Numbered from the stretch's first letter, positions 21,621 to 37,732 are shown. The stretch: 64,000 bases of DNA from Alphaproteobacteria bacterium (GCA_963422645.2 CAXXVO010000004.1:544001-608000), one strand, 5' to 3'. Made by a program: numbers and translations. The notes: generated by a model not told the origin, from the sequence alone.

Positions 21621-21730
21621 CGAACAGTGCCGCTGTCGCCGTTCGTCGCGCGCTGGAACACGCAGACGCAACTTTCAGATGGAATAGTTGAACGTCATGA
21701 CTCCGATTTAAAGCCCACTGATTGTTGTTA

Positions 21731-22168
21731 GTAACTGCCCAGGTACCCCCTCTCTCTTATGGAACAAGCCAGTTCCTTTTGCGTCAACGCCCCCACGCCG
21801 CGGGGGTGCCTACTCTCTTGAGCGCGAGAGGATGATGAACGCCGCGTCGCGAACAAGATGAGAGGACAGCGATACTCAGGATGAGCCGGAGAAGTTCAGG
21901 AGCGCAGTATAGGGATCAGCTGCATCGGTTCCGGGTGCGCCAGGATTTGCAGGATGTTCCAGCCTTGCTTTCGAGCGGTGACGATGACGCTGCGCATTCC
22001 GGCGAAGTTGCAGGCGCCTTGCAGGGAGCGGAAGCCGCCTGAGATCTTCTCATGCACTTTGTTCATACGGATGTCACGCTCCGCCTCGTTATTCGTGAAC
22101 GGCGTGCGCAGGTCGGTGAGGAAGCGCAGGCAGCCCTCCTTATGCTTTTGAAGGCGGCGCGCGAGGTT
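21731..22168 (-). mobile_element. IS66 right-end remnant (IR plus tnpC 3' end), copy 1
   Basis: Matches 34056-34493 by eye; cut by the unclassified IS. Confidence 0.92.
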
Positions 22169-24684: not shown

Positions 24685-24983
24685 GTCTACGTGGTACGGA
24701 GCGGTCCCGGATCGTATGGGGCCGTTTCCGGCCGTTCGATTTTGGCGCACATTTTGCGGCTGCTCCGAGTGGCCGACTAGCCCACTCCCCACATCTTGCT
24801 GGCCGGCGGTCGCGCACGTCACCCCAAACGCCCAAGCCAACATTTGGCCACCGCTTCGGCGCAAGTGGATGATTGGATGTGGAAAATTTCAATTGTCCAC
24901 TCTGCCACGCGAGGTGGCAAGAGTGCCATGACCGCGCGCTGGGTGCGCCGGGTACCACCTGCGGGCACCACATTGGATATTTC

Positions 24984-25421
24984 GTAACTGCCCAGGTACC
25001 CCCTCTCTCTTATGGAACAAGCCAGTTCCTTTTGCGTCAACGCCCCCACGCCGCGGGGGTGCCTACTCTCTTGAGCGCGAGAGGATGATGAACGCCGCGT
25101 CGCGAACAAGATGAGAGGACAGCGATACTCAGGATGAGCCGGAGAAGTTCAGGAGCGCAGTATAGGGATCAGCTGCATCGGTTCCGGGTGCGCCAGGATT
25201 TGCAGGATGTTCCAGCCTTGCTTTCGAGCGGTGACGATGACGCTGCGCATTCCGGCGAAGTTGCAGGCGCCTTGCAGGGAGCGGAAGCCGCCTGAGATCT
25301 TCTCATGCACTTTGTTCATACGGATGTCACGCTCCGCCTCGTTATTCGTGAACGGCGTGCGCAGGTCGGTGAGGAAGCGCAGGCAGCCCTCCTTATGCTT
25401 TTGAAGGCGGCGCGCGAGGTT
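24984..25421 (-). mobile_element. IS66 right-end remnant, copy 2
   Basis: gtaactgcccaggtacccc IR plus tnpC 3' end, as in copy 1. Confidence 0.92.
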
Positions 25422-33538: not shown

Positions 33539-34220
33539 GAGGTCCTCCCTTGAAGTTCTTGCGGGCGGCGCTAATCACGTAGCGGCGCGGATCATCTCCC
33601 CCGCGCGCTCGCCGATCATAATGCAGGTGGCGTTGAGGTTGGCACTGACGACCGTCGGCATGATCGAGGCGTCGGCGACGTAGAGTCCCTCCATCCCGTG
33701 CACCTTGAGGCCGTCGTCCACCACCGCCATGGGATCATGCCCCATCTTGCAGGTGCCGGCAGGGTGATAGACGCCAATGGCGTTGGCGCGGATGTAGTCG
33801 GTCCACTCGTCGTCGCTCTGCACGTCCCTGCCGGGCAGGTGCTCGCCCACGATGTAGCGCGCGATGGGCTCGCTCTCCAGCACCGTGCGGAAGAAGCGGG
33901 AGCCCAGAATCAGGGTCTCGATGTCGCGCTCGTCGGCGAAGAGGTTGGGCTGGATCGCAGGCTGCTTCAGTGGATCGGCCGAGGCGAGGCGCACCCTACC
34001 GGCCGAATAGGGCCGGTGCAGGTTGGTGAGACCCGTGATCGCAGGCTTTTCGAAGGTAACTGCCCAGGTACCCCCTCTCTCTTATGGAACAAGCCAGTTC
34101 CTTTTGCGTCAACGCCCCCACGCCGCGGGGGTGCCTACTCTCTTGAGCGCGAGAGGATGATGAACGCCGCGTCGCGAACAAGATGAGAGGACAGCGATAC
34201 TCAGGATGAGCCGGAGAAGT

Positions 34221-35759
34221 TCAGGAGCGCAGTATAGGGATCAGCTGCATCGGTTCCGGGTGCGCCAGGATTTGCAGGATGTTCCAGCCTTGCTTTCGAG
34301 CGGTGACGATGACGCTGCGCATTCCGGCGAAGTTGCAGGCGCCTTGCAGGGAGCGGAAGCCGCCTGAGATCTTCTCATGCACTTTGTTCATACGGATGTC
34401 ACGCTCCGCCTCGTTATTCGTGAACGGCGTGCGCAGGTCGGTGAGGAAGCGCAGGCAGCCCTCCTTATGCTTTTGAAGGCGGCGCGCGAGGTTGTGGCCG
34501 ATGCGGCGTTTCTTTCGCCCTCGCTTTGCGATCTGGAGCGGCGGTTGGGCCTCATGGAAGGCGATGGCTTCTTCGAGGATACGGTCCCATGCCCTTGAGA
34601 TGCGGGCCACCAGGGAGGCGGGGACTTGACGGTCTTTCTCACGGGCGAAGCGGGCGGCCCTGCGCGCGCGCTGAAGCAGGCGGTGCATGCTCGCCGCCCA
34701 TTCCTCCTTCTCGATGTCGATCAGGGCCTGGAGTTCGCGCAGGTGATGTGCGTTGCAGGCGCCGTGGCGGACGCCCTTGATGGTGAAGTAGGGGGCGAAG
34801 TCGTCGTGGACGAGGATGCCTTTCAGGTTCTTTTCGACATCGCCGCGTCCCTCGCCGATGCGCAGGACGGTGAGCAACGGGGTGCACAGCACATGGAGCC
34901 AGCGGGTACGGGCGGCGATACGCAGGCCGGTCTCGTCGAGGTGCTTGACCGGCGCCTGCGTGCGGATCAGATCGGCGACATGGTCGAGGAAGCCCTCGAA
35001 GCGCTGCGCTGTGCGCCGGCCCATGGCGGCGATCGTGGCAGTGGAGATGGACACCGCGAAGATGTCGCTCATGAGTTCGGCCAGACGCTTCTCGGGCACG
35101 AACTGGGCGTACAGCAGGTAACTCACCCAAGCGGTGATGCGAGGGCCGTACTGGACCGGGGCGGTGACGCCCGGCGGGAAGGCGGCTCGTGTCAGCGTGC
35201 CGCATGCGCCGCAGAGGCAGCGATGGGCGCGGTGTTCGGTGACCTCGAGAGGCTGCGGCTCGGGTACGTCGAAGACCTGCCGACAGGCGGGCGCGCCTTG
35301 CCGGTCGGCGTCCGAGAGCTCGACGCCACAGCCGGAACAGGTGGAGGGGTGGTGATCGACGACACGGTCCGGGCTGTCGCTCCGCGCGAGGGTGGTTCCC
35401 TTGTGGCCGGGCTGGCCGCCACTGGGCCCGCCGGACTTTCCGCGCTGGCTTTGGGTGCGCCTCTGGGCTCCGCTTTTCTTCTTGAGCCCGTCGCTGGCGG
35501 GGGGCTTGCTGCTTGTGGTGCTGTTGAGGGCCGCGCTGCGCTCGAGTTCGGCGATGCGCTCGCGCAGGGCCGCGTTCTCCTGCTCGAGTGCGGCATTTTC
35601 CCGGGCGAGCGCGGTGGCTGATCGCAGCAGCCCCTGCCCCCATTCCCGGACGGCAACGACGACAGTGGTTGCGAGGGATGATGGCTCGAGAAGCTCCTTC
35701 AGGCAGCAGAAGGCCTCGTTACGGGCGGCGAGGTCTTCGTGCCAGTGCGACACCGTCAC
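34221..35759 (-). CDS. tnpC: IS66 transposase TnpC
   Basis: Coiled coil, SSKPPASDG, GGQPGHKG, two CxxC, LDETG, VHDDF, CNAHHLREL, TNNEAERDIR; GTG start overlaps the MTase stop. Confidence 0.95.
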   Translation of the reverse strand: MTVSHWHEDLAARNEAFCCLKELLEPSSLATTVVVAVREWGQGLLRSATALARENAALEQENAALRERIAELERSAALNSTTSSKPPASDGLKKKSGAQRRTQSQRGKSGGPSGGQPGHKGTTLARSDSPDRVVDHHPSTCSGCGVELSDADRQGAPACRQVFDVPEPQPLEVTEHRAHRCLCGACGTLTRAAFPPGVTAPVQYGPRITAWVSYLLYAQFVPEKRLAELMSDIFAVSISTATIAAMGRRTAQRFEGFLDHVADLIRTQAPVKHLDETGLRIAARTRWLHVLCTPLLTVLRIGEGRGDVEKNLKGILVHDDFAPYFTIKGVRHGACNAHHLRELQALIDIEKEEWAASMHRLLQRARRAARFAREKDRQVPASLVARISRAWDRILEEAIAFHEAQPPLQIAKRGRKKRRIGHNLARRLQKHKEGCLRFLTDLRTPFTNNEAERDIRMNKVHEKISGGFRSLQGACNFAGMRSVIVTARKQGWNILQILAHPEPMQLIPILRS

Positions 35760-36421
35760 GTGTCTTCGGCCTCGACGGCCATCATGGCGGCGAGCACGGC
35801 GAGGCGTTCGCCCGGCGGCAAGGCCTGGTAGCGCCGGCCCCAGTTGGCTGCCTTGCGCTTGATGCGCTGGCGGTCGGTGAAGTTCCGGCCTGCGTGGCTG
35901 GCCCAATGCATCCGGTCGGGGGCGTAGTTGAACCAGACGACCTCGGTTCGCACCAGACCCTGGGTCGTGACCTGCAGCGCCAGCCGGCGCCATCCCGCCA
36001 GCACCTCGTCATAGAGCGCCGACGGATGGCCCGAGATCATGACCTGGCAGGGCAGAGCCTTGAGCAGCGCGAGAAGCGCGACGTGGCCGGCCTCCTCGTA
36101 CTCGAAGCGGTAGCGCTGCGCCGAGCGGCGGGTCGCGTGCAGATAGGGCGGATCGCTGTAAACCAGCTCCGGGCCCAGGAACGGGAACGAGGCCAGGAAG
36201 TCATGGGCACAGCCGTGAACCAGATCGACCGGGTAGTCGCAGACGAAGGCCTCGAGCGCCTGCGCATCGCGGTCGATGCCGATCGAACGCACGGCCGGCG
36301 GCTTGCGCTTCATCAGCGCCCCGCCCCCAAGGTGGCTTTCGATGTAGACGGAGTGCGGCGGCATCAGCGCAATCAGCGCTTGGCACAGACCTGCTGTCGC
36401 CTTCGAGCCGAAATACCCCAT
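35756..36421 (-). CDS. Small Dam-like (D12-class) N6-adenine DNA methyltransferase
   Basis: YFGSK (motif X), YIESHLGGG (motif I), IGID (motif II), YSDPPY (motif IV), VMISG. Confidence 0.88.
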   Translation of the reverse strand: MGYFGSKATAGLCQALIALMPPHSVYIESHLGGGALMKRKPPAVRSIGIDRDAQALEAFVCDYPVDLVHGCAHDFLASFPFLGPELVYSDPPYLHATRRSAQRYRFEYEEAGHVALLALLKALPCQVMISGHPSALYDEVLAGWRRLALQVTTQGLVRTEVVWFNYAPDRMHWASHAGRNFTDRQRIKRKAANWGRRYQALPPGERLAVLAAMMAVEAEDT

Positions 36422-36449
36422 GGACCGCTCCCGTCACGCGAGAGAGCAG

Positions 36450-36478
36450 TCCATAGTCCCGCAACTCTATGAGGTCAA
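36450..36478 (-). promoter_or_regulatory. Putative sigma70 promoter for MTase-tnpC
   Basis: TTGACC-17 bp-TATGGA on the minus strand, ~30 bp before the ATG. Confidence 0.45.
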
Positions 36479-37732
36479 GAACCAATCGCGGTGGCAGAAC
36501 CAGGCCGCGGCCGCCGCCATAATCACCGTCCTCAACTCAGGATTGGGGTACCTGGGTAGTTACTTTCGAAGACCTCCGGCCCGTCGGCGGTCAGATCGTA
36601 GCCGGCCGGCGAGAAGAGATACTGCACGTGGCTGCGCGACTTGCTGGGGTCGCAGCGTCTGTAGCCGCAAACCTGGGCGATCGGCGTCAGACGCAGGCCC
36701 GGTGCCGGACAGCAGCCACTGGGCACCATAGACAAGCGCGCTGAGTAGCCCGGTTTGCACGTTGTAGGTCTTGCGGTTGACCCACATGGTCTGGCTGATC
36801 CCGGCGTGGTCCTGCATGTTCTCGCCAACGCCAGGCAGGTCGTTGCGCACCTCGATGCCGTGCTCGCGGAGGTGCGCCGCAGGCCCCACGCCGGAGAGCA
36901 TCAGGAGCTGCGGCGAGCCGAAGCTGCCCGCGCAAAGAACAACTGCCTTGGAGGCTGTTGCTCGCCTGCGCTTACCCCGGCGCAGATATTCGACGCCTGT
37001 GGCCCGGGTGCCCTCGAACGTGAGGCCCAGCGCCTGCGCGTGGGTCACGATGCGCAGGTTTGCACGCTCCTTGGCCGGCCAGAGATACGCGCGCGACGTG
37101 CTGTGCCGCCAGCCCTTTCGCTGGCTGGCCTGCATGTAGCCCACGCCCATCTGCGGCGGCAGGTTGATGTCCTCCCGGAACGTCATGCCCGCCTTCACGC
37201 AGCTCTCGATCAAGGCGCGGGAGAGCGGATGCACCGAGCGGATGTGGGAGACAGAAAGCGGGCCGCCGGCGCCACGGTACTCGTTGGCGCCTCCTTCGTA
37301 ATCCTCAAGCCGGCGGAAATAGGGAAGCACGGTCTCGAAGTCCCAGCCGCGACAGCCGAGCGCCGCCCAGCCGTTGTAATCCTCCGGCGCGCCCCGAATG
37401 AACGAGGTGGCGTTGATCGAACTGGTGCCGCCCAGCACCTTGCCGCGCGGCATGTAGTCCTCGCGCCCGTCGCGGGTGGGGTCGGGCTCCGCCATGAAGC
37501 GCCAGTCGTAGCGCGGGTTGGTGATCGCGAACAGCATGGTCGCCGCAGGCATGAGGATGGTGAGGCGGCGGTCCGAACCGCCGGCTTCCAGCAGCAGCAC
37601 CTGCCGCCGCCCGTCCTCCGAGAGGCGCGCAGCGACGACGCTCCCGGCCGAGCCGGCGCCGACCACGATGTAGTCCGCCTGATGCTCGGCCGGCATCGCC
37701 CGGACCGCTCGTCGACGTTAGGCGCCTTCCGA

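Follow-up and report, generated by a model that had tools for sequence, protein, structure and literature searches.

What is a gene resembling a DNA adenine methyltransferase (Dam) doing inside a bacterial insertion sequence (IS), where it stands directly ahead of the transposase gene and is coupled to it? The question is raised by one locus in a stretch of 64,000 nucleotides from an Alphaproteobacteria bacterium (GCA_963422645.2, CAXXVO010000004.1:544001-608000), which is referred to here as the window and from whose first letter all window positions are counted. The locus is an intact IS66-family element of 2508 bp (34056-36563), with both of its genes, a methylase-like gene and tnpC, on the minus strand. 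As argued below, the methylase-like gene and the promoter region before it probably constitute a portable promoter-operator-repressor cassette that would limit the transposase by feedback, carried on an active IS66 element that has neither tnpA nor tnpB. This reading is held with moderate confidence.

The family-supported open reading frames (ORFs) inside the element are two, the upstream one being Dam-like, and tnpA and tnpB are absent. An earlier reading made from the DNA alone (the sequence-only reading) had described just these two ORFs, a 221-residue Dam-like protein and tnpC joined by a GTGA stop/start overlap, and the description was confirmed. Its account of an intact element was borne out as well. 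The terminal inverted repeats are 19 bp long and match at 18 of 19 positions (GTAACTGCCCAGGTACCCC against the reverse complement GTAACTACCCAGGTACCCC), and the 8-bp direct repeat TTTCGAAG bounds the element on both sides; a TTCGAA palindrome in this duplication makes the repeat appear longer, at 26 nt.

The transposase TnpC matches PF03050 (4.4e-41), NF033517 (3.6e-86; 289.7 bits against a cut-off of 180) and DUF6444 (5e-10), and contains a zf-IS66 region. Its homologues in related loci align from residue 1, directly after the upstream gene. The canonical IS66 group carries the accessory genes tnpA and tnpB upstream of tnpC, and the sequence-only reading had supposed that the methylase-like gene had replaced them. 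However, the annotated relatives closest to TnpC, found in Bradyrhizobium, cyanobacteria, Bacillus and Deinococcus plasmids, are IS66 elements with a single ORF, as in the ISBst12 group. The gene has therefore been added to an element that lacked tnpA and tnpB. The likeness to single-ORF IS66 elements, as drawn from these annotated relatives, consists of the IS66 DDE transposase, the 8-bp duplication, terminal repeats beginning with GTAAC and the absence of tnpA and tnpB. The present element differs in its size (~2.5 kb) and in its extra upstream gene, which has its own promoter and operator and is coupled to tnpC; with this second conserved gene within the inverted repeats, it departs from the tnpC-only content of the single-ORF group. 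The first ~68 residues of TnpC lie outside the matches to the nearest annotated plasmid relatives, which begin at residue 69 or 123, and are kept in relatives that are coupled to the methylase-like gene.

The element is active. The 5.9-Mb host genome holds 36 full-length copies at ≥95% identity (0-5 mismatches), of which 22 have perfect 8-bp duplications, with targets that are mostly A+T-rich. A protein search of the same genome gave 88 matches, among them 50 frames of full length that are 99-100% identical and a further 24 whose identity is 85-88%. The latter frames belong to a sister IS of 2461 bp that is co-resident in the genome and has the same architecture and terminal repeats (for example, in the region G000:C8:846489-849545). 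Its operator spacer differs (TTGACTGTATAGGTTCTCTCGCCTATG), and 8-bp duplications were present in 9 of the 11 copies examined. When 18 more genomes of the genus were searched for the protein, only 3 gave a match, and a random sample of 400 genomes of the phylum yielded two further genomes with a full-length family member.

In the methylase-like protein, motif I (ESHLGGG) and motif IV (SDPPY) follow the alpha-group order, and the D12-class alpha-group enzymes E. coli Dam, DpnM and T4 Dam have the same succession of N-terminal GxK motif, motif I and DPPY. Taken singly, the protein matched no Pfam family at E ≤0.01 (PF02086 included), reached 22.1 bits against TIGR00571 (Dam), far under the cut-off of 114.85, and gave no match in a single-sequence search of the Protein Data Bank; Dam and DpnM were found only via the family profile and the fold. 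When 40 sequences are combined in a profile, DpnM (7e-10) and E. coli Dam (3e-6) are matched over two separate blocks, with profile positions 2-65 corresponding to DpnM residues 16-77 and positions 82-159 to residues 184-266. Because 106 DpnM residues face 16 profile positions between these blocks, about 90 DpnM residues are without counterpart and the recognition domain is missing. Compared with Dam, DpnM and T4 Dam, the protein thus lacks the ~90-residue recognition domain between motifs III and IV and has gained a C-terminal helical hairpin. The AlphaFold model (predicted local distance difference test, pLDDT, 90.7) has a compact and complete Rossmann methyltransferase core with no inserted domain, followed by two long basic C-terminal helices (residues 181-199 and 203-219), and the best structural matches returned by Foldseek were Dam and DpnM (3e-7). 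The profile gap, the model and the Foldseek matches all uphold the earlier description of a Dam-like protein in which the recognition domain is almost absent and a basic helical tail follows. A two-copy complex prediction scored 0.20 and 0.16 (mark 0.42), which counts neither way on dimerisation.

The protein belongs to a large family, with 3707 matches in one database (the best 120 all ≥70% identical) and 5660 representatives at E ≤0.001 in a second, 563 of them at ≤1e-30. Residues D90, P91, P92 and G32 are invariant across the 40 sequences. Among close relatives, 118 of 119 retain DPPY and 119 of 119 motif I; among full-length representatives, the figures are 114 of 120 for DPPY and 105 of 120 for motif I. 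The ratio of nonsynonymous to synonymous substitution rates (dN/dS) of the methylase-like gene is 0.20 in type A, the IS66 lineage of the window element (27 elements, 86 pairs), and 0.13 in the type B lineage (52 elements, 137 pairs), while the transposases give 0.28 and 0.12, respectively. The gene is under purifying selection.

The association with a transposase recurs well beyond the host genome. A total of 160 related loci were fetched, 80 from a genome collection and 80 from metagenomes, the latter scanned with a closer alignment (A2), and in the majority the methylase-like protein is paired with an IS66 transposase. Among the genome-collection loci, an IS66 transposase stands directly downstream in 70 of 80 (in nine of these it is only 26-31% identical to the window TnpC), an IS701-family transposase is found instead in seven, tnpC is cut by another element in two and a truncated type-B tnpC is present in one. 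The search for such pairs, which the sequence-only reading had proposed, thus showed that the pairing is not a one-off capture. Seventy of the 80 metagenome loci have at least 600 bp of downstream room; the type-B IS66 lineage, with its 483-aa transposase, occupies 61 of these and another IS66 type one. The other eight gave no tblastn match, and Pfam or NCBIfam searches there revealed two more IS66 variants, one IS1634-family and one ISKra4-family transposase and three unrelated neighbourhoods. Type B elements have the ends GTAACTACTCACCC and 8-bp duplications. Across 109 related loci, the 4-nt gene overlap recurs in 46 and the intergenic gap is at most 30 nt in all except nine, in agreement with the earlier view of the two genes as a tightly linked unit.

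Two of the rarer partnerships are uncertain. The IS1634 partnership (L173) is doubtful, being known from a single contig; a type-B IS66 left end lies upstream there, so the IS1634 gene may be a later insertion. The ISKra4 partnership (L187) comes from one contig, on which no ends were found. Other elements also adjoin the pair at places: on one contig (L078/L116) a truncated type-B tnpC has an IS91-like ORF downstream, and at another locus (L064) an IS630-family transposase is inserted just 3' of the methylase-like gene.

Compared between element types, the upstream gene behaves as a module. Identity between types A and B is 0.72 for the methylase-like protein and 0.31 for the transposase; within lineages, the two diverge at similar rates and under similar constraint. 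Furthermore, the protein occurs at 85% identity in an IS701-family element of ~2.78 kb (NF049999, 4.5e-92), which has inverted repeats of its own with the ends CTCGACTTTGTACATTT, shows 5-bp CTNAG duplications and is present in several copies per genome, three being seen in one genome. DNA homology between the IS66 and IS701 elements is confined to element positions 86-809 (729 bp, 83% identity), and its boundaries run exactly from the -35 box to the stop codon of the methylase-like gene. The sequence-only reading had raised the possibility of a methyltransferase directed by TnpC, which is unlikely given that the same protein accompanies IS66 transposases only ~31% identical to each other and an IS701-family transposase. 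A quick tree was built from 74 rows, after removal of identical proteins and with only those loci that have a transposase ORF of at least 430 aa. All IS proteins group in a single clade there, apart from three plasmid proteins (support 100 in the Shimodaira-Hasegawa-like approximate likelihood ratio test, SH-aLRT), the IS701-linked proteins (96) are sister to type A (90) inside a clade of support 98, and the other transposase partners nest within type B. The IS701-type element also has a third ORF of 176 aa (L068:3472-4002, minus strand; L072, L088), divergent from the cassette, with a weak match to DUF3024 (E 0.002) and conserved between distant copies.

The shared segment begins with a putative promoter, and this promoter holds the second conserved component of the cassette. 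Every IS type has the near-consensus TTGACA-17-TATGCT upstream of the gene, with CATAG just past the -35 box, CTATG overlapping the -10 box and N10 between them. The strict form of this putative operator was present in 127 of 146 distinct upstream regions, and a relaxed form (four mismatches allowed) in 99 of 100. In 89 distinct 30-mers, TTGAC, T10-A11-G12 and C23-T24-A25 are kept in 87-89, and the N10 spacer is variable; a symmetric arm variant, CGTAG/CTACG, appears in three sequences, probably of one lineage. The left arm lies in the promoter spacer, where conservation goes beyond what promoter function alone would require. In the host genome the operator pattern has 59 occurrences, all in IS sequence, against ~1.5 expected, and it is found once per element and is absent from the ends. 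This conserved promoter and operator travelling with the gene is a feature beyond those that the sequence-only reading had recognised. A hairpin in the 5' untranslated region over the ribosome-binding site was considered and rejected, as it did not stand above shuffled sequences (z = 0.9).

A function for such an arrangement is suggested by Upf31 of IncP-1 plasmids. A plasmid collection gave 196 matching records, all at <60% identity, and in the contexts inspected the matching genes, upf31.0 of IncP-1 among them, belong to the backbone of plasmids that are conjugative or of IncP type. Upf31 of pBP136 is 46% identical to the window protein over residues 1-206 (93% of the length), with DPPY and motif I intact, and an alignment including Upf31 (A3) has 66 invariant columns, the RxRIKRK region among them. 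Upf31 (IncP-1 beta; pBP136, pB3) shares with the IS protein the short Dam-like core without recognition domain and the C-terminal basic helices, and its gene likewise has its own promoter, in which a pair of inverted half-sites, separated by 10 bp, lies between -35 and -10. The IncP-1 upf31.0 promoter, TTGACA-GCATCG-N10-CGATGC, has the same TTGAC-N2-half-site-N10-half-site layout as the IS cassette, the half-site being CATCG in Upf31 and CATAG in the IS elements. Unlike the IS protein, Upf31 is the product of a single-copy plasmid backbone gene, has no transposase beside it and is predicted to act via KorB; it also lies outside the clade of IS proteins in the quick tree.

Upf31 has been studied experimentally, and that work reports repression by full-length Upf31 of its own promoter, which gave 4.76 XylE units without and 0.09 with the protein (Elg et al., 10.1101/2024.02.05.579024). 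According to the same work, this promoter holds an operator-like inverted CAGCATCG pair, and the C-terminal domain of Upf31 was modelled for dimerisation and for contact with KorB (10.1101/2024.02.05.579024). Upf31 gave no Dam-type protection in a digest and no genome-wide signal in SMRT (single-molecule, real-time) sequencing (10.1101/2024.02.05.579024; published as PMC11997246), the SMRT test having been run on a strain that lacked the plasmid, with the ORF placed by itself, without the operator, in an expression vector (10.1101/2024.02.05.579024). The survey of homologues in the published version was a BLASTN search of plasmids, and it placed them mostly on IncP-1 beta plasmids (PMC11997246).

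Taken together, the favoured reading is that the IS-borne member of the Upf31 family would bind, probably in dimeric form, to both half-sites (core TAG-N10-CTA), and these overlap with the promoter spacer and the -10 box. The bound protein would repress the single transcript encoding itself and, by translational coupling, the transposase. Such negative feedback would keep transposase output low and largely independent of copy number and of transposase family, which would explain why the same cassette stands before unrelated transposases. Repression, dimer binding and an effect on transposition by the IS protein are what we infer; an autorepressor accounts for the presence of the operator, for where the cassette begins and ends, for its indifference to the transposase family and for the behaviour of Upf31. 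Insertion sequences with upstream regulators and with Dam-controlled transposase promoters are known kinds. Transposase expression in IS1 and IS3-type elements is held down by a small DNA-binding protein encoded upstream. Host Dam exerts control over IS10 and IS50, and the IS10 transposase promoter has an adenine-methylation site linked to it in its -10 region. Compared with these, the regulator proposed here is element-encoded, methyltransferase-derived and moves between IS families as a cassette.

Several points weigh against this reading. Repression, DNA binding and dimerisation would have to carry over from a 46%-identical homologue whose half-site is CATCG and not CATAG. The right half-site coincides with the -10 hexamer, and its conservation may partly reflect promoter function. 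The single putative promoter of the sequence-only reading stands only in part: the window-copy hexamers TTGACC/TATGGA fail a consensus promoter scan, which calls none there, whereas the homologous promoter in a type-B relative (L083) is called at 10/12. The tree is a quick one with SH-aLRT support only, the careful search being unfinished, and many loci come from binned metagenome genomes, so that host assignments and copy numbers are possibly imperfect. A search of the published literature, with ISfinder, TnCentral and subscription journals outside its range, found no IS66 or IS701 element with a methylase-like gene, and ISfinder may already list elements of this kind. Finally, the explanation is incomplete because a pure repressor needs neither DPPY nor motif I, yet both are near-invariant.

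Given these near-invariant catalytic motifs, it is possible, if doubtful, that the protein also methylates adenine within its own operator. A fuller version of this idea, which extends the autorepressor and does not displace it, is a little less likely again: the protein would be an active N6-adenine methyltransferase whose sole substrates are the adenines of its own operator, the candidates being the invariant A of CTA (at -11 of the -10 hexamer) and the adenine symmetric to it. When fully methylated, the promoter would be silent, and passage of the replication fork would leave hemimethylated DNA and permit a brief burst of transposase, as Dam does on IS10. Near-invariance of both catalytic and cofactor motifs is consistent with such a switch, as are the complete Rossmann core with its Dam and DpnM matches and the invariance of TAG-N10-CTA, whose central T:A pair none of the half-site variants has lost, the plasmid CATCG among them. 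Nor does the negative SMRT result for Upf31 speak against it, because methylation confined to a single operator would be invisible when the ORF alone is expressed in a strain lacking the plasmid. However, methylation has been demonstrated for no family member, and the motifs could have a non-catalytic use, in flipping an adenine or in DNA binding that depends on the cofactor. An equally tentative statement of the same idea is that of an epigenetic timer, in which a dimer derived from Dam, without recognition domain, would read the 20-bp palindrome, methylate the -11 adenine and restrict transposase production to the short hemimethylated period after replication, the cassette having passed between at least the IS66 and IS701 families and possibly also to ISKra4 and IS1634.

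The sequence-only reading had further proposed that the element marks its own DNA. Of that proposal only a narrower form, with methylation confined to the operator, is left. A broad, low-specificity adenine methyltransferase acting on the element, on transposition intermediates or on the host genome, and thereby protecting from restriction or changing the methylome, is improbable. In its favour, a protein that has lost its recognition domain could be less specific, its catalytic motifs are conserved and relatives reside on conjugative plasmids; there is also a precedent in the non-specific Dam-related enzymes Hia5 and Hin1523 of Mu-like prophages, as described by Drozdz et al. (PMC3299994). 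However, the same paper indicates that Hia5 retains a divergent ~90-residue recognition region, unlike the IS protein (PMC3299994). Moreover, Upf31, with intact motifs, acts as an autorepressor and showed neither genome-wide SMRT modification nor Dam-type protection in the experiments cited above, anti-restriction would be of little gain to a resident chromosomal IS, and the conserved operator and promoter travelling with the gene would be left unexplained. Least likely of all is a transposition cofactor that binds TnpC or the element ends for end recognition, target choice or handling of intermediates, standing in for TnpA and TnpB, since the translational coupling of the two genes and the ~68 N-terminal residues by which type A TnpC exceeds its annotated single-ORF relatives are outweighed by the occurrence of the same protein with 26-31%-identical IS66 transposases and an unrelated IS701-family transposase, by an operator motif found once in the element and not at its ends, and by plasmid homologues that function without a transposase.

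The features of the element and its surroundings are collected in Table 1.

Table 1. Coordinates of the IS66-family element and the flanking gene, given as positions in the window
Feature	Position	Strand	Remarks
Target-site duplication TTTCGAAG, tnpC-side copy	34048..34055	no strand	
Terminal inverted repeat, tnpC end, GTAACTGCCCAGGTACCCC	34056..34074	no strand	Boundary common to 36 full genomic copies
tnpC, IS66-family DDE transposase, 512 aa from GTG	34221..35759	-	DUF6444 N-terminal region, zf-IS66, DDE_Tnp_IS66
GTGA stop/start overlap, methylase-like gene and tnpC	35756-35759	-	
Dam-derived methylase-like protein without target-recognition domain (Upf31 family), 221 aa	35756..36421	-	ESHLGGG, DPPY, C-terminal basic helices
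Putative sigma-70-type promoter	36450..36478	-	-35 TTGACC (36478-36473), 17-bp spacer, -10 TATGGA (36455-36450)
Putative operator, inverted repeat CATAG-N10-CTATG	36452..36471	-	In promoter spacer and -10 region
Terminal inverted repeat, promoter end, reverse complement GTAACTACCCAGGTACCCC	36545..36563	no strand	Shared boundary in genomic copies
Target-site duplication TTTCGAAG, second copy	36564..36571	no strand	
GMC oxidoreductase gene, 3' part	33575..34055	-	GMC_oxred_C
GMC oxidoreductase gene, 5' part	36564..37696	-	GMC_oxred_N; extra frameshift near 36.69 kb

The insertion lies inside a gene for a GMC oxidoreductase, as had been recognised earlier. The flanks carry the domains GMC_oxred_N (7.5e-50) and GMC_oxred_C (1.1e-37), and in-silico excision of the element leaves the frame of the C-domain open through the insertion site. 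The interrupted gene has a further frameshift at 36680-36700, ~120 bp from the insertion site, which is either a real pseudogene lesion or a homopolymer assembly error.

Several of the host copies that lack duplications have reciprocally swapped flanks. In full-length pairs such as G000:C6:391794-394300 and C9:531722-534228 of the host genome, the bounding octamers are GGAGAGTC/GAATACAT in one and GAATACAT/GGAGAGTC in the other. Flanks exchanged in this way point to recombination between copies of the IS or, possibly, to joins made at repeats during assembly. The window also contains two identical partial copies (21728-22168 and 24981-25421), co-oriented and 3253 bp apart, which comprise only 438 bp of the tnpC side; after each comes an ORF of 436 aa whose N-terminal part has a weak IS630-like match. 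Many genomic fragments break at element position 433-438, which suggests that another element repeatedly inserts there. In addition, another IS66-type tnpC (~67% nucleotide identity) adjoins many copies at ~200-260 bp (for example, G000:C16:127293-128578); this may be a nested or targeted insertion, and the sister element may account for part of it.

One plasmid study has already made the protein family and its autorepression known. An IS-borne clade of the Upf31 family, its conserved operator and its exchange between IS families were not found in print, in a search that had ISfinder outside its range. The usual view of an IS is that of a transposase with family-specific control. Here one control cassette, whose DNA limits are sharp at the -35 box and at the stop codon, serves different transposase families, which suggests that mobile elements pass regulatory modules to one another much as they do cargo. 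A single genome of 5.9 Mb has 74 full-length frames of the methylase-like protein, so that the hosts are visibly remodelled by these elements, and the swapped flanks between copies point to rearrangements. Thousands of genomic and metagenomic proteins annotated as "DNA adenine methylase" would be Upf31-related regulators, and such annotations may mislead surveys of methylomes and restriction-modification systems. The cassette also opens the question of what role a methyltransferase without a recognition domain plays, and why its catalytic motifs are fixed.

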